The position numbers were made by a program, and so were the translations under genes. Below the pieces are notes generated by a model. The model ran no database searches, had not been told where the DNA came from, and was given only the letters and a program-made list of their open reading frames with translations. Positions 8,340 through 42,434 of a stretch of 64,000 nucleotides of DNA are shown here, one piece after another (positions within the stretch are counted from its first letter, which is position 1; each line of letters starts with the position of its first letter). The stretch is from Rickettsiales bacterium (GTDB taxonomy: Bacteria > Pseudomonadota > Alphaproteobacteria > Rickettsiales > SXRF01), in NCBI GenBank assembly GCA_005792635.1, contig SXRF01000068.1:180-64179 (forward strand), given 5' to 3'.

Positions 8340-8390
8340 TAGTGTAGCATTTTAGCAATAAATAACAAAAATTAGTTGAGGAATAAAAAG

Positions 8391-8957
8391 ATGGCTCGTC
8401 CAGAACGCAATGAAAAGAAAACCACTCAAGAAGGCAGCGATTTGATTGACAAGTTGGTGTCCATTAACCGTGTTGCCAAAGTGGTAAAGGGTGGTCGCCG
8501 TTTTGGTTTTGCTGCACTGGTTGTGGTGGGCGATGGCAAAGGTCGTGTTGGTTATGGTGCTGGTAAAGCGAAAGAGGTTTCTGACGCAATGCGTAAGGCT
8601 CTAGATTCGGCAAAAAAATCAATGATTCGCTTCCCGCTTCGTGAAGGTCGGACTGTGCATCATGATTTATATGGTCACTTTGGCGCGGGTAAAGTTATCA
8701 TCCGCACTGCGCCTGTTGGTACTGGTATCATCGCTGGTGGGCCGATGCGTGCAGTATTTGAAGCTCTTGGTGTGCAAGATGTGGTGGCTAAATCGGTTGG
8801 GACTTCTAACCCACACAACATGCTTAAAGCAACTTTTGATGCACTTGAAGGCATGAAATCTCCACGAGCTATTGCTGCGAAACGCGGTAAAGTTGTTGGT
8901 GAGATTGTGGATCGTCGTGAGGGAAAAACTTCATCAGCAAAAACTGCTGAAGCTTAA
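8391..8957 (+). CDS. rpsE: 30S ribosomal protein S5
   Basis: ATG at 8391 after GAGGAATAAAAAG. Contains [16 protein letters not shown]. The ORF-track start at 8376 is a TTG extension. Confidence 0.94.
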
Positions 8958-8975
8958 AATTTAAGGAATTGTAAT

Positions 8976-9296
8976 ATGGTAACCGATGCAGTAAAAAAAT
9001 CTCCAAAGGCGGCGGCAGCAGCAAAATCAGCTAGCGCACCAGAAGCGAAAAAAACAGAAACTAAGGCGGCTGCAAAGCCAGCTGTAAAAAAAGCTGCGGC
9101 TTCTACGGCGGCGGCTTCTGGCAAAGTTAAAGTTACACAGATGATAGGTTCTATCGGTCGTCGTTCGGATCAGCAGGCAACTCTAGTTGGTCTTGGTTTG
9201 AATAAACGCCATAAATCTCGCGTTTTGGAGGATACTCCTTCTGTTCGCGGCATGATTTATAAGGTGCGCCATTTGGTAAAAGTTGAAAACGCGTAA
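8976..9296 (+). CDS. rpmD: 50S ribosomal protein L30 with about 45-aa Ala/Lys/Pro-rich N-terminal extension
   Basis: 106-aa ORF. The uL30 core [26 protein letters not shown]...[15 protein letters not shown] is preceded by [47 protein letters not shown]. There is no in-frame start codon next to the core. Confidence 0.9.
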
Positions 9297-16722: not shown

Positions 16723-17634
16723 CTAACGAGCAGCACCATTCGGTGCTTGCGCTTTTTCACCACTAATTGTCGGTGCTGGCTTATCGTGAGCATGTGATGC
16801 CGCAGTGCAATTATAATCCTTACCAGTACAACCAGCCGCTTCGGCTTCTTTCTGAGCTTTTTTCATTGCATCTTCGGCTCGTATCGCGCGTTCGCGTTCG
16901 TTCTCTTGCCTTGCTACTTCTTTATCAATTGCCTGATCTACTGCTTTGGGGTTATTCTCAAGTGTGTCTTTAGGTAATCTAATTACTGTACCCTTGTAAT
17001 CATCAGGCGGCAAAATTGTTGGTTGACCGTCAACTGCTTCAGGCAAAACCAACACGGGTGAATTAATAGTTACGCGATCCATTCGCGTTTCTACTACACG
17101 CCCATTTTCAATTTTTTGCGATTCCATATCGCCAAAGTCTTTAATTACCACTCCTTTTGGGGATTTTATAACTGTGTCGGTACTGAGGTATTTGTTAGTA
17201 TCAATACCCAAAGAATCAATTTTTACCACATCTCTGTCAGAGGCGATTTCTTTACCGCCAACACCATCCATTTCCACCGTACCAAGCTCTATAGCTCGAT
17301 TAGCTTGAATCTTAGGATTAGTAAGATGCGTGTGTTCAAGTTTGACATTTCCGTACGATCCTTGGGAATAAAATGTTACATCTTCATAGTTGCGCTGAAC
17401 ATTAGTTCTTTCATTCACTTTTGTGTCTGTTATACTACCTCCAATAATTGTTATATCTGATTTGTCTTCATCTCCACTAATAATGATACTGCGACCGTCT
17501 CCGTTTATAAGTTTGTTATCAGAAGTTTTATTATCAACAATAAGTGGCTGTTGAGCAGTCTCAAGCCGTTTATTTAAGTCATTTGCTTCTTCATCAGTCA
17601 AAAGCATTTCTCCGTCTTTATTCATATAAGGCAT
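16723..17634 (-). CDS. Hypothetical protein (acidic, no signal peptide, coiled-coil-like C-terminus)
   Basis: 303-aa ORF with no family recognised. It has an AT-rich upstream region containing a C9/G9 tract. Confidence 0.6.
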   Translation of the reverse strand: MPYMNKDGEMLLTDEEANDLNKRLETAQQPLIVDNKTSDNKLINGDGRSIIISGDEDKSDITIIGGSITDTKVNERTNVQRNYEDVTFYSQGSYGNVKLEHTHLTNPKIQANRAIELGTVEMDGVGGKEIASDRDVVKIDSLGIDTNKYLSTDTVIKSPKGVVIKDFGDMESQKIENGRVVETRMDRVTINSPVLVLPEAVDGQPTILPPDDYKGTVIRLPKDTLENNPKAVDQAIDKEVARQENERERAIRAEDAMKKAQKEAEAAGCTGKDYNCTAASHAHDKPAPTISGEKAQAPNGAAR

Positions 17635-28836: not shown

Positions 28837-29186
28837 TTATATTTGTCCGTGACGGCGGCGAAAAGATTTCCGCCAATGTCTTTTCCCGTTCCGCTTTGCA
28901 CAATTTCATTGAGTAGTGCGACAGCAAAGCCAATCGGCCCGCCGATCAGTGTGCCGCCCAGCAAGCGCGAGCCAGTTGAAATCGTGTCGCCGCTAATTTC
29001 GCGGTAGGCAGTGGAAATAACAGGCAATTGTTGCAGCGGGTTAAAAATATCCAGCACTGATTTGAAGCTCACGCCGCCCGCACCCAAAAAATTATCATTG
29101 GTAACATCATAACCCTTTGCCATTTTTTGTTGATATGGCGAGAGATTGCGCTCTGGCTGGGCATAAATTGTAATTTCCGTTGTCAT
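28815..29186 (-). CDS. Hypothetical protein, 123 aa
   Basis: ORF with a Gly-rich C-terminal half (LLGGTLIGGPIGFAVALL). No family assigned. Confidence 0.5.
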   Translation of the reverse strand: MTTEITIYAQPERNLSPYQQKMAKGYDVTNDNFLGAGGVSFKSVLDIFNPLQQLPVISTAYREISGDTISTGSRLLGGTLIGGPIGFAVALLNEIVQSGTGKDIGGNLFAAVTDKYNQTDKLA

Positions 29187-29240
29187 ATTTTTCCCTTTTG
29201 TTTTTAGCTTTAGGAAGCAATAGCCGTGCCAATTTTTTCC

Positions 29241-29268
29241 TTGACAGTTTTTTGTTGTCGGCTATCCG
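29241..29268 (+). promoter_or_regulatory. Possible promoter for tRNA-Thr
   Basis: TTGACA (29241-29246), a 16-nt spacer, then TATCCG. It overlaps a 9-nt direct repeat GTTGTCGGC (29254-29262 and 29268-29276). The -10 is weak. Confidence 0.25.
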
Positions 29269-29307
29269 TTGTCGGCGCAATTATTATTTGCCCATTATTT
29301 GTCTTGT

Positions 29308-29382
29308 GCCGCTTTAGCTCAGGGGTAGAGCAACCGCCTTGTAAGCGGTAGGTCGTCAGTTCGAATCCGACAAGCGGCACCA
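29308..29382 (+). tRNA. tRNA-Thr (anticodon UGU)
   Basis: Hand-folded cloverleaf: acceptor GCCGCTT/AAGCGGC, D arm GCTC-AGGGGTA-GAGC, anticodon arm ACCGC-CTTGTAA-GCGGT, variable loop AGGTC, T arm GTCAG-TTCGAAT-CCGAC (one A-C mismatch), and an encoded CCA. Confidence 0.9.
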
Positions 29383-29542
29383 TTCTCCAAACTCTCAGTA
29401 TGTTTCCACAAGGCGGTTGCTCTATATAGTTTAATCCGCTCGCATAGCTGTTTTTGGTTGTTTTTCTCGCGCATTTTTTCGCAAAATTAATAAAAAATCA
29501 ATTATTGCCATATAAACTTGATGGTTTAAGTGGGAATATTTG

Positions 29543-30007
29543 ATGAGCATAAAATATTATAAATTGAAAATGCTGCATGAGGTCGCGGATCTTTCTGTTG
29601 TGCTGTCGGAATATTTTCCTGCACCATCTCTTGCGGCTCTTGGGATTTATGAGCTGCTAATCAATGCCATTGAGCATGGCAATCTTGGAATAACCCACGC
29701 CGAGAAACAGCAGCTAATTTTTAATGGTGGGTTTGAAGATGAAATTAATGCGCGGCAAGCCATGCCTGAAAATGCAAATAAGCATGTGGATGTGGCTTTG
29801 TTTTCCTCTGATGAAATATGTATCATTACCATAACCGATCAGGGTGCGGGATTTAATTGGAAACAATATATCCGTGAATATGTCGCGGATGATGATGTAC
29901 ATGGTCGTGGGATTATGCTTGCACGCAATTGTGGCTTTGATTCTGTTGCTTATAATGATGCGGGAAATTCGGTTATTTGTGCGAGCAAAAAAATTGTGCA
30001 AAAATAA
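29543..30007 (+). CDS. RsbW/SpoIIAB-like GHKL serine kinase (anti-sigma-factor-type HATPase)
   Basis: 154 aa with N-box ELLINAIEHGN, G1 DQGAGF and G2 GRGIMLARN. It is co-oriented with and directly upstream of the che operon. Confidence 0.7.
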   Translation: MSIKYYKLKMLHEVADLSVVLSEYFPAPSLAALGIYELLINAIEHGNLGITHAEKQQLIFNGGFEDEINARQAMPENANKHVDVALFSSDEICIITITDQGAGFNWKQYIREYVADDDVHGRGIMLARNCGFDSVAYNDAGNSVICASKKIVQK

Positions 30008-30123
30008 TTTTCTCCGTTAATTGTTTCTTTACTAAAAACTTCTATACCTAAAAAATAGTTGTGTTACTAAAGAGAAATACAACCCGTTTTTTATGCGAAC
30101 AATTTAGTTAAGCGGAGGGTGCC

Positions 30124-30447
30124 ATGACGGCAAATAATACGGCAAAAAACATAGCTTTGCCAGAGCTGCTGAGCAGTGATGCTTTTGAGCAATTCCACGC
30201 GCTGCTCGCTGAGGAAATTTCTTCCACTGATGATATAGAATTTGATGCTTCTGGTGTTTCGCGCCTTACCACGCCTTGCGCTCAGCTTTTGGCATCGTTC
30301 TTGCAAACAAGAAATTTGCAGGTGGGAAATTCACAGGTGGGAAATTCACAAGTTGGAAAAGCACAAAAAACAGAAATAAAAAATGCCTCTGATGCGTTTC
30401 GTTCGGCGTGGAGCGATCTTGGGCTTGGAGCGCAGTTTGCCTTATAA
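30124..30447 (+). CDS. STAS-domain protein, CheS-like (first gene of the che operon)
   Basis: 107-aa ORF containing IEFDASGVSRLTTPCAQLL. Its position upstream of cheY-cheA matches cheS of Sinorhizobium meliloti. It contains an internal QVGNS repeat. Confidence 0.6.
   Translation: MTANNTAKNIALPELLSSDAFEQFHALLAEEISSTDDIEFDASGVSRLTTPCAQLLASFLQTRNLQVGNSQVGNSQVGKAQKTEIKNASDAFRSAWSDLGLGAQFAL
30319..30363 (+). repeat. 15-bp tandem repeat x3 inside the CheS-like gene
   Basis: CAGGTGGGAAATTCA CAGGTGGGAAATTCA CAAGTTGGAAAAGCA, encoding QVGNS QVGNS QVGKA. Confidence 0.95.
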
Positions 30448-30480
30448 AAGATAATTATAGATAATTGGGGAGTATAAATT

Positions 30481-30852
30481 ATGGCGAAAAAAATTCTAGC
30501 GGTTGATGATTCTAAAACCATGCGTGACATGGTTGGTTTTACACTGAAAGCCGCTGGTTTTGAAGTGGTTGATGCTGAAGACGGCAAGGACGCTTTGGAG
30601 AAATTAAAAGGCGGAAAAGTTGACGCGGTAGTGACCGATCTCAATATGCCGAATATGAATGGGTTCGAGCTTATTCGCGCTCTGCGGGCGATGGCGGAAT
30701 ATAAAATGACGCCGATTTTGATGCTCACCACCGAGGGTGACGATACCAAAAAACAAGAGGGAAAAAGTGCTGGCGCGACGGGGTGGATTGTCAAGCCGTT
30801 TAACCCTGAAAAATTGGTGCAGGTAGTAAAAAAAGTTTGCGGCGAGGCGTAA
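30481..30852 (+). CDS. cheY: Chemotaxis response regulator CheY
   Basis: 123-aa receiver domain with ILAVDDS, VVTDLNMPNMNG and KPF. Confidence 0.93.
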   Translation: MAKKILAVDDSKTMRDMVGFTLKAAGFEVVDAEDGKDALEKLKGGKVDAVVTDLNMPNMNGFELIRALRAMAEYKMTPILMLTTEGDDTKKQEGKSAGATGWIVKPFNPEKLVQVVKKVCGEA

Positions 30853-30856
30853 GATT

Positions 30857-32875
30857 ATGACCGATCCAATGGCGCAATTCAAAGACACATATATCACCGA
30901 ATGCTTGGAACTCCTCGCGCAGATGGAAGTTGATTTGCTGGAGTTGGATGAGTCTGCTGATAAGGAAAAACTAAATGCTATTTTTCGTTGCGCTCACTCT
31001 ATAAAGGGCGGTGCTGGTGCGTTTGGGCTTTCGCAAATGGCGGGGTTCACTCATATACTGGAAGCATTGCTGGATAAGCTGCGCGAAGGCGAGCTTGCCA
31101 TAACCCGCGAGCTTACCGATGTATTGTTGCGGGCGCGTGATGTGGTTTTGCAGATGGTTTTTGCAGCGCGTGACAATGAAAAGCTTGCAGAAAATTATGG
31201 TGCGGAAGTAAAAAGTGAGCTGGAAGTTATTTGCTCTGGTGGCGCAAAACCTGCGGCGACTTCTTTGTTGCAAAAAATGAATAAGCCGCTGGAAACCACG
31301 GTTGCTAAAGTTATCAGCAACTATACGGTTCGCTTTGTTCCGAAACCCTCTTTGCTTTCTACTGGTAACGAGCCTTTGTTGCTACTGCGCGAACTTAAAA
31401 AACTTGGCGAAGCGACTATCGTTTGTGACACTGGAAAAATGCCGAGCTTTAGCGAAGTGCAACAGGATATTTGCCATTTGAGTTGGACGATTTCGTTGGT
31501 TACGGAAAAAAGTGAAGCCGACATCCGCGAAGTTTTCGAATTTGTGGAGGACGAGTGCGATTTAGACATTGTGCAAACCAATGTTGAAAACCCTGAATTT
31601 ATTGGTGAAGCTCCTGTCAAACAAACTATTGTTCCTGCGGCGGAAAAAGACAAGGCAGCGGCGGCATCGCCAGCGGCAACCTCTATCCGTGTGGATATTG
31701 AAAAAGTTGATAGACTTATCAATATGGTTGGCGAAATCGTTATTATTCAGGCGATGCTTGCCATGCAAACGCGCTTTCTGCCCGCGCAGCAATATCCAGA
31801 ACTCATGCGCGGTATTGACGAGCTAAACCAACATACCCGCGAGTTGCAAGAGGCGGTGATGGCGGTGCGGATGCAGCCCGTGAAATCAATTTTCTCGCGG
31901 ATGCCGCGAATTGTGCGCGATTTATCGGCGCAGCTCGGCAAAGATATTCGTATGGAAACTGCTGGTGAAAACACTGAGGTTGACAAAACCATCATTGAGC
32001 AGCTTTCCGATCCGTTAACCCACATGATTAGAAATTCTGTGGATCACGGTATTGAAACGCCTGCTATCCGCCGCGAAAAAGGCAAGCCAGAACAAGGGCG
32101 GATTTTGCTGGCGGCTGAGCATCGTGGTGGCAAGATTGTGATTACTATTAGCGATGATGGTGCGGGCATCAACCGCGAAAAAGTTCTCGCCAAAGCCAAG
32201 GAAAAAGGTGTGGTCGCGCCCGACGCGCAACTTTCGGATAGCGAAATTGATATGCTGATTTTTGCTGCTGGTTTTTCCACGGCGGACGCAGTTACCAATG
32301 TTTCTGGGCGTGGTGTGGGCATGGATGTGGTCAAGCGCAATATTGAAGGTCTTGGCGGCACAGTTTCGGTTTATAACACGCCGAATAAAGGTTCGCAGTT
32401 TGTTATTTCTCTGCCGCTAACCCTTGCCATTCTGGACGGAATGGTGGTGCGGGTGGCACAGGAGCATTACATTGTGCCGATTGCCAATATCATTGAAACC
32501 ATGCGCCCGAAACCAGAAGAAACCAAAAATGTGGCAGACGGCAATGTAGTTATCAATGTTCGCGGCGAGTTTGTGCCAGTTCTTTATCTGCATCAATTAT
32601 TCAATGTTAGTGGCGCGGAAACTGATGCGAGCAGGGCTTTGGTGGTGCTGGTGGAAAATGGCGACATGGCACTTGGGCTGGTGGTGGACGAGCTGGTCGG
32701 GCAGCAACAGGTGGTGATTAAATCGCTGGAAGAAAATGCCGATCCTGTGGACGGAGTGTCGGGTGCGACTATTCTTGGTGATGGCAAAGTGTCGCTGATT
32801 TTGGACATACCGAGCTTGTGCCGCATGAAACAACGCATGAATAATCAACATAAACTTCATTCTAAAGCAGCTTAA
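30857..32875 (+). CDS. cheA: Chemotaxis histidine kinase CheA
   Basis: 672 aa with Hpt motif FRCAHSIKGGAGAFG, HATPase motifs (HMIRNSVDHGIE, DDGAGI, GRGVGMDVV) and a C-terminal CheW-like domain. Confidence 0.96.
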   Translation: MTDPMAQFKDTYITECLELLAQMEVDLLELDESADKEKLNAIFRCAHSIKGGAGAFGLSQMAGFTHILEALLDKLREGELAITRELTDVLLRARDVVLQMVFAARDNEKLAENYGAEVKSELEVICSGGAKPAATSLLQKMNKPLETTVAKVISNYTVRFVPKPSLLSTGNEPLLLLRELKKLGEATIVCDTGKMPSFSEVQQDICHLSWTISLVTEKSEADIREVFEFVEDECDLDIVQTNVENPEFIGEAPVKQTIVPAAEKDKAAAASPAATSIRVDIEKVDRLINMVGEIVIIQAMLAMQTRFLPAQQYPELMRGIDELNQHTRELQEAVMAVRMQPVKSIFSRMPRIVRDLSAQLGKDIRMETAGENTEVDKTIIEQLSDPLTHMIRNSVDHGIETPAIRREKGKPEQGRILLAAEHRGGKIVITISDDGAGINREKVLAKAKEKGVVAPDAQLSDSEIDMLIFAAGFSTADAVTNVSGRGVGMDVVKRNIEGLGGTVSVYNTPNKGSQFVISLPLTLAILDGMVVRVAQEHYIVPIANIIETMRPKPEETKNVADGNVVINVRGEFVPVLYLHQLFNVSGAETDASRALVVLVENGDMALGLVVDELVGQQQVVIKSLEENADPVDGVSGATILGDGKVSLILDIPSLCRMKQRMNNQHKLHSKAA

Positions 32876-32901
32876 AATAATCCAAGAAGGAGGAAACTAC
32901 A

Positions 32902-33423
32902 ATGGCAGAAGCAGCAGTTGCAATAAACGAAGCGGGATATAGCTCTGGTGGCAAGCTTGCCATTGGCGGCAATACCGAGCAATTCCTTACCTTTACGCTG
33001 GGCGCAGAGGAATATGGCGTTGATATTATGATGGTGCGTGAGGTGAAGGGGTGGACGGAAACCACGCGCCTTCCTAACACGCCAGAATATATTCGCGGTG
33101 TGCTGAATTTGCGCGGTATTATCATTCCAATTTTTGACTTGCGGGCGCGGTTCACAGGGCAGCTAACCAACCCAGACGCTAAAAATGTGGTGGTAATCCT
33201 CGCCGTTGGCGACCGCACGATTGGGATATTGGCGGACACAGTTTCCGATATTCTGACTGTTGGTTCGGATGAAATAAAACCCGCACCAGAAACCGATAAC
33301 GCGGTGGATAAACATTTTGTAAGCGGGCTTATTGCGGTTGAGGGGCGCATGGTGGTGTTGCTGGATATTGGCAAGCTGCTTGACCCACACGACCTTGAAA
33401 TAGCCCCTCAGTCAGTCAACTAA
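32902..33423 (+). CDS. cheW: Chemotaxis coupling protein CheW
   Basis: 173 aa with FLTFTLGAEEYGVDIMMVREV...GVLNLRGIIIPIFDLR. Confidence 0.94.
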   Translation: MAEAAVAINEAGYSSGGKLAIGGNTEQFLTFTLGAEEYGVDIMMVREVKGWTETTRLPNTPEYIRGVLNLRGIIIPIFDLRARFTGQLTNPDAKNVVVILAVGDRTIGILADTVSDILTVGSDEIKPAPETDNAVDKHFVSGLIAVEGRMVVLLDIGKLLDPHDLEIAPQSVN

Positions 33424-33470
33424 CTAATATAGAATTAATCATATAAAACATAAATATAGGAGAATTAAAT

Positions 33471-36400
33471 ATGTCAGCTATCAAAATGAGAATTCGCAGC
33501 AAACTAACTTTACTCTTACTTGGTTTTGGTGCGTTACCGCTTGGGGCGGCGATGCCTGTAGTGTTTAACAAGCTGGCTGATATGCAGCAGTCAGCTCTTG
33601 ATGACATGAAAAATACTGCGGCTAGCGTTGCCGAGCTGGTTGATCGCAATTTATTTGAACGCTATGGCGATGTTCAGGCATTTACCACCAACGCCGCCGC
33701 AAAGGATGTTGCAAATTGGTATAAAGCCTCTGGGACACCTCTGGTTAGCTCTATGAATGCGTATATGACCAATTATGGGCTGTATAAGCTTATGATTGTT
33801 GTTGATATGGATGGTAAAGTTGCCGCTGTCAATTCTGTTGATAATAAAGGCAAAGAACTCAATACCTCTGCGCTTTATAGCAAAAATTTCAAGGATGCTG
33901 GATGGTTTCAAAAAGCTGTACGCAAAGAATTTACCAAAAGTGAGACGCTGGATGGTACGGTTATTGAACAACCACATTATGACGCAAATGTGTCAGAGGC
34001 ATATAAGGGGGAAGACGGCTATAGTATTACTTTCTCCGCACCAATTTATGACCATAGTGGAAAAATGATTGGCGTTTGGGCGAATTTCGCTGACTTTGGC
34101 TTGGTGGAAGACATTGTAAAAAGCGTATATGCGCAGAAAAAAGCAAGCGGTTCAGAGGCAATAGCTTTTGCGATTGGAGATGAAAAAGGAATTGCGCTGC
34201 TTAATTATGACCCAGCTCTGGGTGCGGAGACGGAGCGTCGTAATCCTGCGAATATTGGCAAGCAAACGCTAGCTAGTCTTGATATTCCTGCTTCCGTGGA
34301 TGCTGTGAAAGCTGAATCTGGAACTGTTATAGAAACAGACAAAAATAGCGGCGAAAAAGACGCGGCTAGTTGGTCAAAAAGCAAAGGCATACTCGGTATG
34401 CCTAGCCTCGGCTGGACGGTGATTATGCATCAGCCAGCGGATCATGCCTTTGCAGGAATTTATAGCGCGAAGAATACACTATATACCATCATGGGCGTGG
34501 CGTTAATCACAATTCTTGGTGTTGGCTCATTCATTGGAACGCTTGCTAGCCGCCCACTTCGCAAATCAAAAGACGCGATGCAGGCAATTGTGCAGGGCGA
34601 CTATACAACGGTTGTTGAGGGTGAGGATAGCGGTGATGAGATGGGCGAATTAGCGCAGTCTATGAACCAGCTTAAATCTACGCTGGACACCAATACTCGC
34701 CTGAAACAAGCTCTTGATAGTGTTAGCAGTAATGTGATGATGGCGGATGAAAATTTCAATATCATCTATTTGAATGAATCGGTTTCTTCGTTCCTGCGTG
34801 AAGCGGAGAAGGATATTCAGAAAGACCTTCCGCGCTTTTCGGTGGCAAATTTAATGGGTGCGAATATTGATATTTTCCACAAAAATCCATCGCATCAACG
34901 CAACATGTTGGCGGCGATGAGTACGACAACAAAAACCTCAATTCAGGTTGGTGGGCGTTCTTTTGATTTGGTGGCTGTGCCGTTGTTTGATCAAAATAAA
35001 AAGCGCATCGGTACAACTGTTGAGTGGCTTGATGGCGCGGCTGCGGGCATGGTGAATGCTATCAATAAATCGCAAGCGGTTATTGAGTTCCAAGTTGATG
35101 GTACGATTATAAATGCCAACGAAAATTTCCTAGGCGCGTTGGGTTATAGCTTGGATGAAATTAGAGGCAAGCATCACTCAATGTTTGTTGATCCGACTTA
35201 TAAGAATTCGCCAGAATATCGTCAATTCTGGGAGGCTTTGGGGCGTGGTGAAGCACAGACAGCAGAGTTCAAACGCATTGCCAAAGGTGGGCGGGAAATC
35301 TGGATTCAAGCTTCTTACAACCCAATTGCCGACCTTAAAGGGCGTATTGTACGGGTGGTAAAAACCGCAACCGATATTACGCAGATGGTAACTACGCGGA
35401 TTGAAAACGAGGCGGGTATGCGCGAGGCAGTGCATGTATTGACCGAGATTTCAAATGGCAATCTCGCGCTTTCAATGACTGGCGATTATAAAGGCACATT
35501 CTCTGACATTAAAAAAGCGGTGAATGCGACGGTTGAAAAACTGATTGAAATGGTGAACCGCATTAAGGAATCAGCGCAGTCAGTAAGTTCAGCTTCCAAT
35601 GAAATCAGTGCGGGCAGCAGCGATTTGTCGCAGCGCACCGAGCAGCAAGCTTCTTCTCTGGAAGAAACCGCGGCTTCTATGGAAGAAATCACAGGTACAG
35701 TTCGCGCCAACACTGAAAACGCGAAAAATGCCAATACGCTTTCAGCGGAAGCTAGCGATGTAGCGCAGCGCGGTGGGAAAGTGGCGGAAGATGCGGTTGG
35801 TGCGATGAAAAATATTGAAAAATCTTCGCAGAAGATTTCCGATATTATCAGCGTGATTGACGAAATCGCTTTCCAAACCAATTTGCTTGCTCTGAATGCT
35901 GCGGTTGAGGCGGCTCGTGCTGGTGAGGCTGGAAAAGGCTTTGCGGTGGTGGCTTCCGAAGTTCGCTCGCTGGCGGGTCGTTCGGCTTCTGCTTCCAAGG
36001 AAATTAAAGCCCTGATTATGGAAAGTAACAGCCAAGTTAAAACTGGTGCTGAGCTGGTGAACCAAGCTGGTGACACGCTGAAAGACATTGTGGCATCGGT
36101 GAGAAAAGTTTCGGAAATTATTTCGGAAATAGCAGCAGCCAGCGTTGAGCAGTCAACAGGTATTGACGAAATCAATTCGGCAATCTCGCAAATGGACGAA
36201 GTGACACAGCAAAACGCCGCGCTGGTGGAAGAAAACACCGCTGCTGCACAGTCGCTAGTGCATCAGGCGCAGGAGTTGGATGCAATGATGAAATTCTTCA
36301 AAGTTAGCGAAGAAGATAGCTCGTCATCTGCACCACGCTCTCACTCGTCGCACCACGCTCCTGAACTAGTGGTGGCGAAGAAAGCACCAACAGCGGCGCG

Positions 36401-36476
36401 GCCTGTTCCTAAAAAGCCAGTGGTTGCCAAACCAGCTGCGAAAACAGGTACTGACCGCGAGTGGGAGGAATTCTAG
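33471..36476 (+). CDS. Methyl-accepting chemotaxis protein (2 TM, periplasmic Cache-like domain, HAMP, two PAS, MA domain, C-terminal EWEEF)
   Basis: 1001 aa. The signalling hairpin is [40 protein letters not shown]-like segments occur around [16 protein letters not shown] and [17 protein letters not shown]. The C-terminus ends ...DREWEEF. Confidence 0.93.
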
Positions 36477-36592
36477 TAGTGATGTTTGAGGACTAGAGGA
36501 TTAGAGAAATAGAGAATTCAATTCTTTTGTTTTTCTAGTCCTCTAATCCTCTAGTTTTCTAGTTCTCCAATCATCTAATAATCCAATTATCC
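36474..36592. repeat. Heptad-periodic inverted-repeat element in the mcp-cheR spacer
   Basis: TAGTAGT GATGTTT GAGGACT AGAGGAT TAGAGAA ATAGAGA ... TAGTCCT CTAATCC TCTAGTT TTCTAGT. The segment 36492-36506 (ACTAGAGGATTAGAG) is perfectly complementary to 36541-36555. Confidence 0.9.
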
Positions 36593-36594
36593 AT

Positions 36595-37416
36595 ATGCCA
36601 ACACCACAAGCAAACGACAGAGAATTTGACTTCACGCAGAGGGATTTCCAGTTTATTTCCAAGCTGGTGCATCAGCGCATCGGCATTGTGCTGAAGGAAA
36701 ATAAATTTGACATGGTTTATTCGCGGATGGCGCGGCGGTTGCGCGTGCTTAATTTGCGAAGTGTGGCTGATTATCTTGATTTCCTACAAAGTGATGCTGG
36801 CGCGGATGAAATGGGTAATATGGTGAATGCGATTACCACTAACCTCACCAGTTTTTTCCGCGAGCCACATCATTTTGAGCATCTGGCAAAACATGTATTT
36901 ACGCCATTTGCCAAGTCGGGCGAAAGCCGCCTTAGGATTTGGTCGGCGGGCTGTTCGGCTGGCGCAGAGCCATATAGCATCGCTATGACTATGATGGAGG
37001 CGATTCCTGATTTTGCCCGCAGGGATTGTAAAATACTTGCCACCGATATTGACACTAACATGGTGGAAAAAGGCAGAAACGGAATTTATGACGAAGATTG
37101 GATAGATAAAATCCCAGCCAATTTGCGCGTGAAATATGTGGAAGGCAACCAAATAGGCGCGAAAGCCAAATCTCTCATTACCTTTAAGCCGCTAAATTTG
37201 TTGGATGGTTGGCCGATGAGCGGAAAGTTTGACGCGATATTTTGCCGCAATGTGGTGATTTATTTTGACAAAGAAACGCAAGCTCCTCTGTTCTCGCGCT
37301 ATGCGGATATGCTTAAACCAAATGGATATTTATATATCGGGCATTCGGAAAATTTGAATGGCGTTTGCGATCGTTTTAAGCTGGTGGACAAAACTACATA
37401 TCAGAGGATTAAGTAG
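36595..37416 (+). CDS. cheR: Chemotaxis protein methyltransferase CheR
   Basis: 273 aa with TTNLTSFFREPHHFE, RIWSAGCSAGAEPYSIAM and FCRNVVIYFD. Confidence 0.95.
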   Translation: MPTPQANDREFDFTQRDFQFISKLVHQRIGIVLKENKFDMVYSRMARRLRVLNLRSVADYLDFLQSDAGADEMGNMVNAITTNLTSFFREPHHFEHLAKHVFTPFAKSGESRLRIWSAGCSAGAEPYSIAMTMMEAIPDFARRDCKILATDIDTNMVEKGRNGIYDEDWIDKIPANLRVKYVEGNQIGAKAKSLITFKPLNLLDGWPMSGKFDAIFCRNVVIYFDKETQAPLFSRYADMLKPNGYLYIGHSENLNGVCDRFKLVDKTTYQRIK

Positions 37417-37437
37417 TAGAGGATTAGAAAAAAGAAA

Positions 37438-38109
37438 ATGAACCAAGAAGAAACGCAAAAATTTAACCGCCGTAGCACCGATCGCCTGACAGCAAAGAAA
37501 CCAGACGGAACAACGATTGTTGAGCGCAGGAGCAGCGAGCGCGAAAACTTGGCAAAAGTTACCACGCTTTATTCTGGCGATTATTATGTAACTGATAAGC
37601 CAAACGAGATGATTGTTACCATCCTCGGCAGTTGCGTGGCGGCTTGTTTGCATGACCCTGTGGCAAGGGTTGGCGGAATGAATCATTTTTTGCTGCCTGA
37701 CAACACGGCTGGTGGTTCGGTTAGTAATGGCTCTAGCTCTGCGGAATCCACGCGTTACGGCGCGTTTGCTATGGAGCAGTTAATCAACGGAATTTTACAG
37801 CGCGGCGGGCTAAAAAGCCGCATTGAAGCTAAAGTATTTGGTGGTGCAAATGTTATCAATAATTCGGCGATGATTGGCAGCAAAAATGTTTCTTTTATCA
37901 GAAATTTTTTGAAGCAAGAGGGGTTAAAGGTAACCAGCAGTGATTTAGGGGGAGATTATCCTCGGCGGCTGCGTTTTTATCCTGATACGGGCAAAGCAAT
38001 GCTGATGAAACTGGCGAGAAAAGATGATATGATGGTGGTGGATGAGGAAAAACAATTTGCTGAAAAACTTAAAGTTAAACCAGTTGAGGGTGATATTGAG
38101 TTGTTTTAG
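37438..38109 (+). CDS. cheD: Chemoreceptor glutamine deamidase CheD
   Basis: 223 aa with ILGSCVAACLHDP...GGMNHFLLP and KVFGGANV, preceded by an N-terminal extension of about 45 aa. Confidence 0.88.
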   Translation: MNQEETQKFNRRSTDRLTAKKPDGTTIVERRSSERENLAKVTTLYSGDYYVTDKPNEMIVTILGSCVAACLHDPVARVGGMNHFLLPDNTAGGSVSNGSSSAESTRYGAFAMEQLINGILQRGGLKSRIEAKVFGGANVINNSAMIGSKNVSFIRNFLKQEGLKVTSSDLGGDYPRRLRFYPDTGKAMLMKLARKDDMMVVDEEKQFAEKLKVKPVEGDIELF

Positions 38110-38144
38110 TGGCTAGTGACAAGTGGTGAATGATAAGGAAAAAG

Positions 38145-39191
38145 ATGAAAAAAATAAAACTACTAATTGTTGATGATTCCATGCTCATCCGTGCGATGTT
38201 CTCGGAGATGCTTGCGGATTCTCCAGATATTGAGGTGGTGGGGACGGCGGTTGACCCGTTTGATGCGCGGGAAAAAATAAAGCTGCTCAACCCTGATGTG
38301 ATTACTCTGGATGTGGAAATGCCGAAAATGGACGGCATAACTTTCCTAGAGAAAATAATGAGCTTGCGCCCGATGCCTGTTATCATGGTGTCGTCGCTGA
38401 CGGCAAAGGGTGCGGACATAACCATCCGCGCATTGGAAATTGGTGCGGCGGATTTTCTGACCAAGCCAGCAGTGCAGGACGAAACGAGCTTGCTTGCTAT
38501 GAAGCAAGATCTCATCAAAAAAATACATTCCGCTGCCCAGCAAAAAATGTCGGCTCGGAGCGAAAAATTGGTGCAGAAGCCAGCGGGCGAAGGGCAGCTT
38601 AGCTATCGCGGAAGTTCGGTTGGAAAGCTTATAGCCATTGGTGCGTCCACTGGCGGGGTGGAGGCTCTGCGAGAAGTTTTGCAAGTTTTACCGCAAAATA
38701 TGCCGCCGATTGTGGTGACGCAGCATATGCCAGCTGGATTTACCAAGTCATTCGCCAATCGTCTGGATACTCTTTGCGCGATGAGCGTTCAGGAAGCAAC
38801 ACATTTGCAGCCGTTACAGGCGGGGAATATTTATATAGCCGCTGGCGACAGGCATATGGAAATTGAAGCGCAGACGGGCAAATGGGTGATAAAACTGCGT
38901 GATGGTGAGAATGTTTCCAGCCATAAGCCATCGGTGGATGTTTTATTCGCGTCGGTTGCCAAAAACATTGGCAAAAAAGCTGTTGGTGTTATACTTACGG
39001 GCATGGGGCATGACGGAGCAGAGGGTTTGCTGAAAATGCGTGAGGCGGGTGCGAAAACCATCGGGCAGAATGAGGCAAGTTGCGTGGTGTACGGAATGCC
39101 AAAAGTTGCGAAGAATATCGGCGCGGTGGAAACGGAAATGCCGCTTTCTCGGATAGCTGGCGGAATAATTCATCTTTGTGAGAAAATATGA
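38145..39191 (+). CDS. cheB: Chemotaxis methylesterase/deamidase CheB
   Basis: Receiver domain (KLLIVDDS...DVEMPKMDG) plus esterase domain (IGASTGG, HMP, GMGHDG). The ATG at 38145 after AAGGAAAAAG is preferred. The ATG at 38130 is also possible. Confidence 0.93.
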   Translation: MKKIKLLIVDDSMLIRAMFSEMLADSPDIEVVGTAVDPFDAREKIKLLNPDVITLDVEMPKMDGITFLEKIMSLRPMPVIMVSSLTAKGADITIRALEIGAADFLTKPAVQDETSLLAMKQDLIKKIHSAAQQKMSARSEKLVQKPAGEGQLSYRGSSVGKLIAIGASTGGVEALREVLQVLPQNMPPIVVTQHMPAGFTKSFANRLDTLCAMSVQEATHLQPLQAGNIYIAAGDRHMEIEAQTGKWVIKLRDGENVSSHKPSVDVLFASVAKNIGKKAVGVILTGMGHDGAEGLLKMREAGAKTIGQNEASCVVYGMPKVAKNIGAVETEMPLSRIAGGIIHLCEKI

Positions 39192-40357
39192 AAATACTTC
39201 AGTTTTTTTCAAAGGTTGCGGATGAGGAAACGGAGGTGGCGGAAGTTCCTGTCCGTCCTGTGTCTGCGCCTCAGCCTGCCGCCTCTGAAAATTTACTGAA
39301 AGATATGGGGGGTAAATTTTTACCCACCGAACATGCCGAAGAGCTTAAAACATGGATTTCGCAAACCGCGCTTTATGGGCAAAGTGTTGATGTATTGTGC
39401 AATTTGCTTTCCGAATCAGCAAAATATGTTGAGGTGAACACCCATCGGTTGAATGATCAATTTGTAGGTCTTGCCACTGGTGCGCGTGAGCAGGGCGAGC
39501 AGATTCAGAAGGTTATTGACTTAAGCAAAGGGATTGAGGTTGCTGGTGAGGTGATTTCCGTCAGTGATTTTATTGGGGTTTTTTCGGAGACTTTATCGTC
39601 GCTTATGCAAAAAATTCTCGCTGTGTCGGAAAATTCTATGAACATGGCGTATCAAATGGAATCCGCCATAAAAAACATTGCCTATCTTGAGGAATTTACC
39701 ACGCGCATTCGCACTATTAACCGCCAGATGAATTTTCTCGCGCTTAATGCCACGATAGAGGGGGCAAGGGCAGGGGAGGCAGGCAAGGGGTTCAATGTGG
39801 TGGCGGAGGAAGTGAAAAATGTTTCCAAGGAAATTGGCGGGCTTACCAATGACATGGCGAAACGCATCGGCACAGTTTCCGACAGCTTGCATTCGAGCTA
39901 TAAATTGGTGGAGGATTTAGCAACTACCGATATGTCAGATAATATTTTGGCGCAGGAAAAGCTTGATATTTTGCTTGCGGGCATGGTTGCACAGAATGAA
40001 CGCTTTACCGAAGTTATGAAGCGGGCGGTGGCAACTTCCAAAGAAATTTCAGGAAATATCTCGCAAGCAGTGGTCAGTATGCAGTTTCAGGATAGAAATA
40101 CGCAGTATGTTGGCAATGCGGTTGGGGTTCTTCGTCATTTTTTTGAGCATCTTTCAACGCTTCCAGCCGATATGGAGCCGCACGGTGAAACAGTGGTGGC
40201 AGCGGCACGCTTTATCAGTAGTCAATTTACCTTAAGCGAATTCCGTAAGGCGTTTCTTGAGCATTTGATTGACAAAAATTGGATAAAAGCGGAAGATGTA
40301 GAGGGTGTTACATCGTCACAATCAACAGCGTCAGATGATGACATAGAGTTTTTTTAG
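39188..40357 (+). CDS. Soluble methyl-accepting chemotaxis protein-like transducer (no TM segments)
   Basis: 389 aa with the MA-domain core [33 protein letters not shown] and MQFQDRNTQ. Its start overlaps the cheB stop (ATGA). The C-terminus ends ...DDDIEFF. Confidence 0.85.
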   Translation: MKILQFFSKVADEETEVAEVPVRPVSAPQPAASENLLKDMGGKFLPTEHAEELKTWISQTALYGQSVDVLCNLLSESAKYVEVNTHRLNDQFVGLATGAREQGEQIQKVIDLSKGIEVAGEVISVSDFIGVFSETLSSLMQKILAVSENSMNMAYQMESAIKNIAYLEEFTTRIRTINRQMNFLALNATIEGARAGEAGKGFNVVAEEVKNVSKEIGGLTNDMAKRIGTVSDSLHSSYKLVEDLATTDMSDNILAQEKLDILLAGMVAQNERFTEVMKRAVATSKEISGNISQAVVSMQFQDRNTQYVGNAVGVLRHFFEHLSTLPADMEPHGETVVAAARFISSQFTLSEFRKAFLEHLIDKNWIKAEDVEGVTSSQSTASDDDIEFF

Positions 40358-40377
40358 AAGAAATTGGAGTTGGTTTT

Positions 40378-40680
40378 ATGGAATTATCTATTTCAAGAAA
40401 TGGTGATGCGGCATTTGCCAAAATGTCTGGCAAATTCACATTTTCAGATCACATGAAGTTTAAGGATGTCCTCGCGCTTGCTGAGGATGCGAGCATAAAA
40501 TCCGTAACGCTTGATTTTGCGGCGATTGAGTTTCTGGATTCCGCTGGTCTTGGGATGCTTATGATTTTGCGAAAGATAGCCATGCAAAACGGGCAGGGGG
40601 TGACCATAGCCTCGGCGAATGGACAGGTTGACAAAGTTCTTCGGTTGTCGCGCTTTGACGAAATGTTCAATATGGTTTAG
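40378..40680 (+). CDS. SpoIIAA/RsbV-like STAS-domain anti-sigma-factor antagonist
   Basis: 100 aa containing FLDSAGLGMLMIL, which keeps the Asp-Ser phospho-acceptor context. It is the last gene of the co-oriented che cluster. Confidence 0.8.
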   Translation: MELSISRNGDAAFAKMSGKFTFSDHMKFKDVLALAEDASIKSVTLDFAAIEFLDSAGLGMLMILRKIAMQNGQGVTIASANGQVDKVLRLSRFDEMFNMV

Positions 40681-40687
40681 GCTCTAC

Positions 40688-41863
40688 CTAGCGCAATCTG
40701 TTTAGACCCTGTTCCAAATCCGCTATTAAATCGTCAGTATTTTCCAAGCCGATATGCAGGCGTAGCAAAAACCCATCATGTTTCCACTTGCTGGCTGTGC
40801 GGATTTTTTCTGGTTTGCAGGTGATGATCAGGCTCTCAAATCCACCCCAGCTATAGCCCATACCGAAATATTCAAGCCCGTCGAGCATCGCGGCTAGTGC
40901 CTCCAGCGAATAGCCATCTTTCAAAATAATACTGAACAGGCTGGTTGCACCTGTGAAATCGCGTTTCCATATTTCATGACCAGCGCAGGACGGCAGGGCA
41001 GGGTGCAAAACTTTTGCTACTTCTGGTCGGGTTGCTAGCCAATTTGCTACACGCAAACCGCTCGCATATTGTTGCTTAACGCGAACCGCCATCGAGCGAA
41101 GACCGCGCAGAGCAAGGTAGCATTCATCACCACTCGCCCGCGCACCAATATTGCGGAATGTTTGCAATAGTTTTTTATAATGTACCTCTTTGCAAGAAAG
41201 TACGCCCATTATTAAATCAGAATGCCCGCTTATATATTTAGTGGCAGAGTGAACAGAAACATCAATTCCCAGCTCAAACGGGTGAATAAACAGCGGTGTT
41301 GCCCAAGTGTTATCGGCAATAACCACCGCGCCTTTTGCGTGCGCCGCTGCGGCAATCGCTGGTATATCCTGAACCTCAAAGGTGAGTGATCCTGGACTTT
41401 CTACAAACACTACCTTGGTGTTAGCTTTGATGAGTTTTGCAATATCAGCACCAATAATCGGGTCGTAATATTCAACCTCAATCCCCAGCCGCTTTAGCTC
41501 ATGGTCACATGAACGGCGTGTTGGCCCGTAAGTGCTGTCAACCATCAGCAAATGATCGCCAGCACTCAGAAAAGCCAGCAATGATGTCATAATCGCCGAT
41601 AAACCAGAGGCGGTAACGATTGAGTAATCAGCACCTTCAAGCTCGGCTATTGCCTTTTCCAATGCCTCAGTGCTTGGTGTGCCAAATCTACCATAAGTCG
41701 GGTATGGGCAGTTGCCGCTATCGGCTGCCTCAAACTCGGCAAGGGTCGGGAATAATATCGTGGAGGCGCGATACACAGGCACATTCACCGCCCCACGATG
41801 GGCATTGTTGTGAACACTAGAAGCGCAGCCAGAGGTAGCGAGGATGGTTTCGATTTTTTTCAT
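40688..41863 (-). CDS. metC: Cystathionine beta-lyase (Cys/Met-metabolism PLP enzyme)
   Basis: 391 aa with the PLP-lysine context SATKYISGHSD. The overall family is clear, but the beta-lyase versus gamma-synthase subtype was assigned from length and N-terminus only. Confidence 0.7.
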   Translation of the reverse strand: MKKIETILATSGCASSVHNNAHRGAVNVPVYRASTILFPTLAEFEAADSGNCPYPTYGRFGTPSTEALEKAIAELEGADYSIVTASGLSAIMTSLLAFLSAGDHLLMVDSTYGPTRRSCDHELKRLGIEVEYYDPIIGADIAKLIKANTKVVFVESPGSLTFEVQDIPAIAAAAHAKGAVVIADNTWATPLFIHPFELGIDVSVHSATKYISGHSDLIMGVLSCKEVHYKKLLQTFRNIGARASGDECYLALRGLRSMAVRVKQQYASGLRVANWLATRPEVAKVLHPALPSCAGHEIWKRDFTGATSLFSIILKDGYSLEALAAMLDGLEYFGMGYSWGGFESLIITCKPEKIRTASKWKHDGFLLRLHIGLENTDDLIADLEQGLNRLR

Positions 41864-41866
41864 GTT

Positions 41867-42181
41867 TTATATCATTCCTTTATTAAATGCGTCACGCAGT
41901 AATTTTTCAACTTTTACATTATAGCCCTTGCCGACAGATTTAATTAAATCCACTAAATCAGGGGAAAAACGAAAGGCGATCATTTTTTTTGGTGCGATGG
42001 AGGCTGGGCGACCGCGATTTTTATTTTGGATAGCGGATAGTTTTTTTTGCAAGGAAAGCGGCAAACCAGAAAACGGCACGGCATTTTTGAAAAATTCATC
42101 GGTAAGCTCTGGAACATCGTCATCATCAAGCAGTACACGCGTACCATCTTCATATTCAATGTATTCTTGTTTTTTTTTCAT
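41867..42181 (-). CDS. brnA: BrnA-type antitoxin (COG3514-like, RHH)
   Basis: 104 aa with GRPASIAPKKMIAFRFSPDLVDLIKSVGKGYNVKVEKLLRDAF. It overlaps and lies downstream of the BrnT gene. Confidence 0.75.
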   Translation of the reverse strand: MKKKQEYIEYEDGTRVLLDDDDVPELTDEFFKNAVPFSGLPLSLQKKLSAIQNKNRGRPASIAPKKMIAFRFSPDLVDLIKSVGKGYNVKVEKLLRDAFNKGMI

Positions 42182-42434
42182 AATCTTTCCTTTCTCGCAA
42201 ATTTGCTTTTCTGAGGCTTATCGCTCGCACTCCATTTTGTGTTTCCACAAAACATAAAATATGCAGTCTTTCATAGATATAACCAGTTGAAACGCAACGA
42301 ACCTCGCCATAATCCTTTCGAGAGTCGATTGCGATTTTGGCAGTCGCATAATCAAACAACCCCGCATCAGCAAGTGATATGCCGTGCTTGTTTATATTCT
42401 TCTCATTCTTAACTGGATCGAATTCTATATCCAT
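42156..42434 (-). CDS. brnT: BrnT-type toxin (DUF497 ribonuclease toxin)
   Basis: 92 aa with MDIEFDPVKNEKNINKHGISLADA...YGEVR...RAISLRKANLRERKDY, the typical DUF497 pattern. It overlaps brnA by 26 nt. Confidence 0.8.
   Translation of the reverse strand: MDIEFDPVKNEKNINKHGISLADAGLFDYATAKIAIDSRKDYGEVRCVSTGYIYERLHILCFVETQNGVRAISLRKANLRERKDYEKKTRIH

Follow-up and report, generated by a model that had tools for sequence, protein, structure and literature searches.

The closest described counterparts of the locus analyzed here are the ancestral, 'stage 1' chemosensory clusters of class F7, in which the genes follow the order antagonist, cheY, cheA, cheW, aer2-like, cheR, cheD, cheB, mcpA-like, antagonist, serine phosphatase, with two anti-sigma-factor antagonists, the serine phosphatase and two cheW-like genes in the set (Ortega et al. 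2020, PMC7184735). The Aer2-like receptor of these clusters carries the tether motif x-[HFYW]-x2-[HFYW], and McpA has no tether and a conserved C-terminus (PMC7184735). The gene order of the alphaproteobacterial F7 clade is not described in that paper (Ortega et al. 2020, PMC7184735). The present locus comes from an alphaproteobacterium, an uncultured member of the Rickettsiales. It occupies positions 29540/29543 to 40680 of a stretch of 64,000 nt (the window, meaning the whole stretch analyzed) and consists of eleven co-oriented plus-strand open reading frames (ORFs), in which chemotaxis (che) genes are accompanied by one gene for a GHKL-type kinase and two genes for STAS proteins.

Proteins of these last two kinds form partner switches in other bacteria. 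The che1 locus of Shewanella oneidensis encodes CrsR, in which a receiver (REC), a PP2C phosphatase and a kinase domain are joined, and the STAS protein CrsA, which together make a partner switch controlling RpoS; HsbR/HsbA of Pseudomonas aeruginosa is the homologous pair, and HsbA partners FlgM/FliA and HsbD, a diguanylate cyclase (PMC9855816, PMC6482189). In this type of system RpoS is held by the kinase/anti-sigma domain, which also phosphorylates the STAS antagonist; once dephosphorylated by the PP2C domain, the antagonist binds to the kinase domain and the sigma factor is released, and the receiver domain is the input site (PMC9855816, PMC6482189). LvrC of Leptospira interrogans is a Rec-regulated putative anti-sigma factor, solved with ADP-Mg (PDB 9qih), whose receiver is phosphorylated by the histidine kinase LvrB and for which no STAS partner is described (Nat Commun 2026, PMC13269768). 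CheS of Sinorhizobium meliloti, according to the summary of Dogra et al. 2012 in PMC12654446, binds CheA and speeds the dephosphorylation of CheY1.

The locus is probably an alphaproteobacterial version of the ancestral (Aer2/McpA-type, 'stage 1') F7 cluster with a reduced, split partner-switch output module. The eleven genes and their order, as given in the preliminary description of the window, agree with the ORF calls, Pfam and NCBIfam, and every assignment is borne out by the two databases, with the 5′ STAS scoring below the Pfam cut-off. There are no competing ORFs across the cluster, which lies on a single strand with short gaps (116, 33, 4, 26, 47, 118, 21, 20, −4 and 20 bp from 5′ to 3′). 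The features of the locus are:

29308-29382 (+), tRNA-Thr (TGT), called by ARAGORN; 5′ boundary of the locus, with the kinase gene starting 160 bp on
29543-30007 (+), stand-alone GHKL/Bergerat serine kinase or anti-sigma-type protein, 154 residues (Pfam HATPase_c_2); alternative TTG start at 29540 (155 residues)
30124-30447 (+), STAS1, a small STAS-only protein directly 5′ of cheY-cheA (Pfam STAS_2, 25.9 bits, below the cut-off of 29.2)
30311-30355 (+), in-frame tandem repeat of three 15-bp units within STAS1, giving a 13-residue loop insertion of QVGNS repeats
30481-30852 (+), CheY, a single-domain response regulator (Pfam Response_reg, 101.9 bits; 60% identical to the CheY of a Vibrio F7 cluster)
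30857-32875 (+), CheA (Pfam Hpt, H-kinase_dim, HATPase_c, CheW)
32902-33423 (+), CheW, one copy (Pfam)
33471-36476 (+), MCP1, a transmembrane methyl-accepting chemotaxis protein (MCP) of 1001 residues (Pfam dCache_1, weak, then HAMP, PAS_8, PAS_4, HAMP_2, MCPsignal)
36595-37416 (+), CheR methyltransferase (Pfam)
37438-38109 (+), CheD deamidase (Pfam, NCBIfam), ending in GDIELF
38130-39191 (+), CheB methylesterase with a receiver domain (Pfam)
39188-40357 (+), MCP2, a soluble McpA-like receptor of 389 residues (Pfam MCPsignal), ending in DDDIEFF
40378-40680 (+), STAS2, a canonical anti-sigma-factor antagonist, HsbA/CrsA-like (Pfam STAS and STAS_2; NCBIfam ant_ant_sig)

The stage-1 layout is seen on chromosome 2 of Vibrio aquimaris (L168), which gave the top CheA match among the cultured organisms available and where the genes run STAS, CheY, CheA, CheW, CheW, Aer2-like receptor (ending in DEWEEF), CheR, CheD, CheB, MCP2, STAS and a final gene of 564 residues with the architecture REC-SpoIIE-HATPase_c_2. 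All eleven window genes have counterparts in this cluster, and the order of the ten that run from the 5′ STAS to the 3′ STAS is conserved. Pairwise identities are 60% for CheY, 49% for CheB, 43% for CheA, 42% for CheR, 41% for CheW, 38% for CheD, 38% for MCP1 (over residues 410-1001), 33% for STAS2, 30% for the kinase and 28% for MCP2, and STAS1 matches weakly. The window thus shares with stage-1 F7 clusters (the V. cholerae cluster III type) the gene order, an Aer2-like receptor with an xWxxF end, an McpA-like receptor, CheD and a pair of STAS genes from two different subfamilies. It differs from them in having one cheW where Vibrio has two, in the fusion of the Aer2-like body to a periplasmic dCache/transmembrane/HAMP module, in its alphaproteobacterial host (as opposed to Vibrio, Shewanella and Pseudomonas), and in the output genes: no REC-PP2C-kinase follows the 3′ STAS, whereas a kinase free of both REC and PP2C stands at the 5′ end. 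Judged by proxies, namely the MCP1 tether, the end of MCP2, the span on the Tar model, the Aer2 model and the gene order, the cluster would probably fall into class F7/36H.

The kinase matches HATPase_c_2 with 33.1 bits (cut-off 27.4), and no receiver or PP2C domain was found by Pfam in its 154 residues, Response_reg included. The motifs quoted in the preliminary description are all present in the translations: ELLINAIEHGN, DQGAGF and GRGIML in the kinase, FLDSAGLG in STAS2. An alignment of 31 family members reveals invariant residues in the N-box (E38, N42, E45, H46, G47, N48) and in G1 (D100, G102, G104, F105), as well as invariant G122 and G124 (G2) and G142 and near-invariant R123 and N143; the window kinase keeps all of them. 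In a profile search of the PDB, the sole close solved relative of the family is 9qih (E 1e-18), an entry labelled 'SenB' that is LvrC of Leptospira by its Foldseek title, and RsbW (E 0.002) and SpoIIAB (E 0.03) are marginal by sequence. Structurally, an AlphaFold (AF2) model of the kinase (pLDDT 92) matches LvrC 9qih in Foldseek at TM 0.82, with SpoIIAB and RsbW at E 4e-6 to 6e-4. The window kinase and LvrC share a Bergerat domain with the motifs ELxxNAxEHG, DxGxGF and GRG; LvrC has an N-terminal receiver in addition, and the window kinase has none. In sequence comparison, CrsR/CrsA were represented by Vibrio and Thioalkalivibrio proteins that share their architecture. The whole of the kinase family profile can be aligned to the C-terminal domain of the Thioalkalivibrio REC-PP2C-kinase (hhalign probability 97.2%, E 3.7e-11), the family model scores 69 bits on the Vibrio REC-SpoIIE-HATPase_c_2 protein, and the 30% identity of the window kinase to Vibrio lies at the C-terminus of that CrsR-type protein. 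By profile and model, the window kinase consists of an entire Bergerat domain of the LvrC/CrsR-domain-3 type that apparently binds ATP. A remnant of REC or PP2C was looked for directly 5′ of the kinase gene and not found; the tRNA-Thr gene and non-coding DNA lie there instead, and because the tRNA gene occupies the upstream position there is no remnant ORF.

The two STAS proteins belong to distinct subfamilies, and the idea that both are equivalent substrates of the kinase was rejected on this ground. STAS2 (STAS_2 49.6 bits, STAS 41.9 bits) keeps the acceptor pair Asp54-Ser55; D54, S55 and G59 are invariant across its family, whose consensus is xDS[AS][AG]LGML. It matches TM1442 in the PDB (E 7e-10) and is 29% identical to the Thioalkalivibrio STAS, which, like its Vibrio counterpart, precedes a CrsR-type gene. 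Some of its relatives are named 'HptB-dependent secretion and biofilm anti anti-sigma factor' by JGI, and the best 120 matches in a search with the family profile are all sequences from uncultured organisms. STAS1, in turn, is of a 'TTP..Q' subfamily, with Thr-Thr-Pro in place of Asp-Ser and then a conserved Gln. The Asp is replaced by Thr, the Ser position is Thr in 35 of 51 positional homologues, and the counterparts in Vibrio and Thioalkalivibrio have Asp-Ala instead of Asp-Ser. The subfamily was found in 40 of the 48 relatives with enough upstream sequence. That the weak Pfam score of STAS1 might be a false match was rejected, since the family profile matches solved STAS structures (4hyl at E 3e-7; SpoIIAA and RsbV at E 5e-4 to 2e-3) and its alignment to the STAS2 family covers the full length (hhalign E 2e-5). 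The 13-residue QVGNS insertion is private to the window and occurs in no relative examined. The label 'CheS-like' given to STAS1 in the preliminary description stands for position and fold: like CheS of Sinorhizobium meliloti and Agrobacterium, STAS1 is small, STAS-only and directly upstream of cheY-cheA, 33 bp from cheY, and a 106-residue protein in the same position of an Agrobacterium plasmid che cluster matches its profile weakly (hhalign 70%). The window differs from the CheS systems in its single CheY, and hence has no CheY1/CheY2 sink.

As a kinase-STAS pair, the window proteins resemble two sets of characterized systems. With CrsR/CrsA and HsbR/HsbA they share a STAS protein with a phosphorylatable Ser and a GHKL domain homologous to domain 3 of the larger partner, and both crsR and crsA lie, like the window genes, within an F7 che locus; CrsR and HsbR, however, are single REC-PP2C-kinase polypeptides, whereas the window has a lone kinase and neither receiver nor phosphatase at the locus. 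With RsbW/RsbV and SpoIIAB/SpoIIAA of Bacillus they share the Bergerat fold of the kinase and the fold and Asp-Ser acceptor of STAS2, but sequence similarity is marginal, and the window genes sit in a che cluster with no adjacent sigma gene and no PP2C.

Genomic neighborhood analysis of 80 genome loci around CheA homologues, annotated with the window proteins and custom hidden Markov models (HMMs), places this arrangement in context. The nearest relatives by CheA (60-88% identity) are all uncultured Alphaproteobacteria, labelled 'Rickettsiales', Holosporales or Alphaproteobacteria. The usual layout (CheA 48-88%) is STAS1, CheY, CheA, CheW, MCP1, CheR, CheD, CheB, MCP2, STAS2 and REC-PP2C, the last a protein of about 395-405 residues, and most alphaproteobacterial relatives have one CheW; Pfam bears out the REC-PP2C proteins and the kinases. 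In the 30 fully covered alphaproteobacterial loci that make up the co-occurrence sample (one-sided Fisher test, phylogeny not corrected for), a 5′ STAS of the TT type is present in 24, MCP2 in 22, an Asp-Ser STAS in 18, PP2C in 14 and the kinase in 8. Kinship ignored, the kinase occurs exclusively alongside an Asp-Ser STAS (8/8, p = 0.0075), PP2C does likewise (14/14, p = 2e-5), and MCP2 co-occurs with the Asp-Ser STAS (p = 0.0025). The partner-switch module commonly travels with this F7 cluster class, and the association of the STAS and kinase genes with che genes envisaged in the preliminary description extends across the relatives.

The kinase takes several forms in these loci. It stands alone between STAS2 and REC-PP2C (L003, L004), alone, divergent and beside an Asp-Ser STAS at the 5′ edge (L018, L039), or alone beside REC-PP2C (L055); it is fused to a receiver (L022, L019, L031), or joined with REC and PP2C as kinase-REC-PP2C (L042) or as REC-PP2C-kinase (Thioalkalivibrio, Vibrio). 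Where present, it adjoins an Asp-Ser STAS or a REC-PP2C gene in most relatives. The closest genomic homologues of the window kinase are those of L055 (43%), L039 (39%) and L022 (38%), followed by L019, L018 and L031, and all of these adjoin clusters of the F7-type class. Peculiar to the window is the combination of a receiver-less, co-oriented kinase at the 5′ end, STAS2 at the 3′ end and no PP2C.

By homology and co-occurrence, the kinase would phosphorylate STAS2 on Ser55, and STAS2 in its unphosphorylated state would bind the kinase and thereby displace a partner of the latter (a sigma factor or some other regulator), in the manner of CrsR/CrsA with RpoS. In the relatives, chemosensory input would enter through the receiver fused to PP2C or to the kinase, presumably phosphorylated by CheA. 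Both receiver-bearing components are missing from the window, and dephosphorylation would therefore need a distant phosphatase, encoded elsewhere in the genome, as the simplest answer, or control would have to pass through free CheY or through the level of the kinase. STAS1 would be a CheS-like accessory of the CheA/CheY step and not a substrate of the kinase. To our knowledge, alphaproteobacteria generally lack RpoS, which makes it unlikely as the target in this host. The known, and here most likely, role of such a module is an output branch in which a partner switch acts on a regulator. A bolder version, in which the chemosensory array drives the switch without phosphatase or receiver, CheY~P or MCP2/CheD regulating the LvrC-type kinase in trans so that STAS2 phosphorylation is the primary F7 output in a bacterium without RpoS, is quite improbable.

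Several observations weigh against an F7 cluster with a reduced output module. Cluster-specific HMMs detected neither PP2C nor any additional kinase, STAS or receiver in the 64-kb window, and Pfam found no sigma-factor domain in 32 flanking ORFs, all outside the first 14.7 kb; neither a phosphatase nor a target was thus found locally, and the preliminary description had correctly noted the absence of a phosphatase and a sigma factor from the cluster. The link from CheA to a CrsR-type receiver has itself only been proposed ('could be involved', PMC9855816), and function 'remains unclear' in the F7 literature (PMC7184735). The locus is known from metagenome assemblies of an uncultured organism, as genes alone. 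The kinase gene follows a tRNA gene and lies 116 bp from STAS1, and its co-transcription is only putative. Nor does the 5′ position of the kinase recur in the closest relatives. The slot 5′ of STAS1 contains no kinase in L083 (CheA 88%; 426 bp of AT-rich non-coding DNA), L082 (CheA 76%; a SpoU gene) or L084 (CheA 70%; a drug-resistance gene), and in L044 (CheA 70%) it holds a receiver-less PP2C (SpoIIE only, 278 residues, 8350-9186). The position in the window is therefore recent, and the bracketing of the operon by kinase and STAS, to which the preliminary description had drawn attention, does not represent a conserved design. Finally, Asp-Ser STAS, PP2C and kinase are all missing from 12 of the 30 loci; together with the co-occurrence, this marks the partner-switch set as a frequent but dispensable, mobile accessory of the cluster class. 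In the survey of the kinase family (80 metagenomic loci, L085-L164), about 65 of the 80 members are receiver fusions of about 300 residues (LvrC type), mostly with no che or STAS gene in reach. Most members are unlinked to such genes, and the family therefore needs no STAS partner.

The kinase might be a mere neighbor, an LvrC-like anti-sigma or Bergerat protein that landed beside tRNA-Thr by rearrangement and acts independently of both che operon and STAS2, with the operon proper starting at STAS1. The 116-bp gap, the place directly after a tRNA with an odd inverted fragment, the lack of a kinase at that position in the closest relatives and the many unlinked family members speak for it. Yet the kinase is co-oriented, no terminator is predicted in the gap (a weak test), its nearest homologues in genomes all lie in F7-type clusters beside an Asp-Ser STAS or REC-PP2C, and in the 30 loci it never occurs without an Asp-Ser STAS. 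A minority of the metagenomic family members do lie in che/STAS/REC-PP2C clusters, some with the module in front, and the REC-less members with visible context mostly adjoin PP2C or STAS genes (L003, L018, L039, L055, L085, L095, P0003, P0007); one such context has Hpt, REC-PP2C, kinase and STAS nearby, and one REC-less member, P0011, is an orphan with neither PP2C nor STAS nearby. We consider a chance neighborhood unlikely, though not negligibly so. The module might instead be decaying, with REC-PP2C lost, the kinase displaced, STAS2 permanently phosphorylated or idle, and the chemosensory core alone functional. The lack of PP2C within 64 kb would agree with this, as would the private repeat insertion in STAS1 and the loss of the whole module in the 12 relatives named above, with others keeping parts of it. 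However, all three ORFs are intact, kinase and STAS2 keep every invariant residue of their families listed above, a PP2C elsewhere in the genome is possible, and the Holosporales relative L022 likewise has STAS2 and a kinase with no local PP2C, so that decay appears rather improbable.

The preliminary description had suggested that STAS phosphorylation is wired into chemosensory signalling or its output. An output branch is likely, as set out above; for feedback into signalling itself, with phospho-STAS acting on CheA, CheY or the soluble receptor in the fashion of CheS, no evidence was found. The action of CheS on CheA and CheY1, as summarized in PMC12654446, would offer a precedent, the presence of MCP2 correlates with STAS2, and a C-terminal motif common to CheD and MCP2 is unexplained. 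Against it, the protein in the CheS position, STAS1, has no Asp-Ser acceptor, while STAS2 groups with the HsbA/CrsA antagonists, which are known to partner kinase/anti-sigma domains, FlgM and a diguanylate cyclase (PMC6482189). The cluster also has a single CheY, and the CheY1/CheY2 phosphate-sink scheme is therefore inapplicable. Such feedback is very improbable, and the partner switch as an output of the F7 cluster remains the preferred reading.

The chemosensory core supports comparison with the gammaproteobacterial clusters gene by gene. The best NCBIfam model for CheA is the E. coli-type PRK10547 (586 bits, full length, below the equivalog cut-off); its best matches in the plasmid/chromid collection are the CheA proteins of Vibrio chromosome-2 clusters (43% identical), followed by E. 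coli CheA (39-40% over 90% of the query). MCP1 has two hydrophobic segments, at about 12-33 and 336-361, and ends in EWEEF, with [DG]W[EKQ]EF kept in relatives. Its best NCBIfam model is Vibrio Aer2, the 38% identity over residues 410-1001 is to a Vibrio Aer2-like receptor, and residues 655-960 match positions 225-530 of the E. coli Tar model (306 positions each). MCP1 looks like an Aer2-type PAS-PAS-HAMP-signalling body joined to a periplasmic dCache/transmembrane/HAMP module; if so, it would be anchored in the membrane, unlike the cytoplasmic receptor of gammaproteobacteria. MCP2 has no hydrophobic segment and no CheR-tether pentapeptide: its end, DIEFF, breaks the tether motif at position 2 (Ile), as in McpA. 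The relatives have D[IV]ELF, and the Vibrio counterpart ends in EVEFF.

The C-termini of CheD (38092-38109) and MCP2 (40340-40357) share the motif [DE][IV]E[LF]F, as GDIELF and DDIEFF. It is present in nearly all alphaproteobacterial relatives (L003-L084) and in Vibrio L168 (DVELFG, EVEFF). The conserved McpA C-terminus has been noted as unexplained, and its sharing by CheD is not mentioned (Ortega et al. 2020, PMC7184735). A common docking partner for the two C-termini is a possibility.

Two further arrangements were seen among the kinase homologues. In L128, L135 and L155, genes for REC-PP2C, REC-kinase, STAS and an McpA-like receptor precede cheY-cheA, a split-gene analogue of the gammaproteobacterial 'stage 2' rearrangement. 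On plasmid AZO_p4 of Azospirillum lipoferum (L167), a receiver-Bergerat fusion follows a large 'response regulator' gene, beside a diguanylate cyclase.

Around the cluster, the flanks scanned with Pfam hold housekeeping genes (LeuRS, porin, MreB, SerRS, PurL and others), and the first 14.7 kb resembles a ribosomal-protein operon by ORF layout. At the 5′ boundary, 17 nt from within tRNA-Thr (29326-29342) recur as a perfect inverted copy at 29408-29424, 26 nt 3′ of the tRNA and ahead of the kinase gene; the copy may be a rearrangement scar or a structured element. At the 3′ boundary, a convergent gene for a Cys/Met enzyme of the pyridoxal-phosphate type opens 8 bp past STAS2. Over 29100-41000, scans for promoters and terminators yielded as many matches as in shuffled controls and are thus uninformative on transcription units. 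Just 3′ of the cluster, between two aminotransferase-type genes, a BrnA-antitoxin-like ORF (41867-42181, −) is overlapped upstream by an ORF of 92 residues (42156-42434, −), which could be its BrnT toxin partner. ORFs with no Pfam match lie at:

16723-17634 (−), 303 residues
19670-21190 (+), 506 residues
21193-22212 (−), 339 residues
28815-29186 (−), 123 residues
59208-60758 (+), 516 residues

That STAS and kinase genes associate with a che cluster is already described genomically and partly characterized: the view that no characterized example exists gives way to CrsR/CrsA in the che1 locus of Shewanella and to the stage-1 F7 definition of Ortega et al. 2020. No earlier description was found of the alphaproteobacterial forms with split genes, of the kinase as a member of the LvrC-type Bergerat family or of the reduced arrangement of the window. 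The source organism is uncultured, so the value of the window itself is mainly comparative; it adds one reduced variant, with kinase and STAS and no local phosphatase. In the literature, the output of ancestral F7 systems still counts as unclear, and a connection between CheA and the CrsR-type switch is a proposal. The analysis connects STAS-dependent partner switching with the LvrC-type Bergerat domain, whose structure has recently been solved. The relatives carry STAS, kinase and REC-PP2C as separate genes in several arrangements, natural 'split' versions of the switch in which the steps from CheA to the receiver, from the phosphatase to STAS and from the kinase to STAS are each separately testable.

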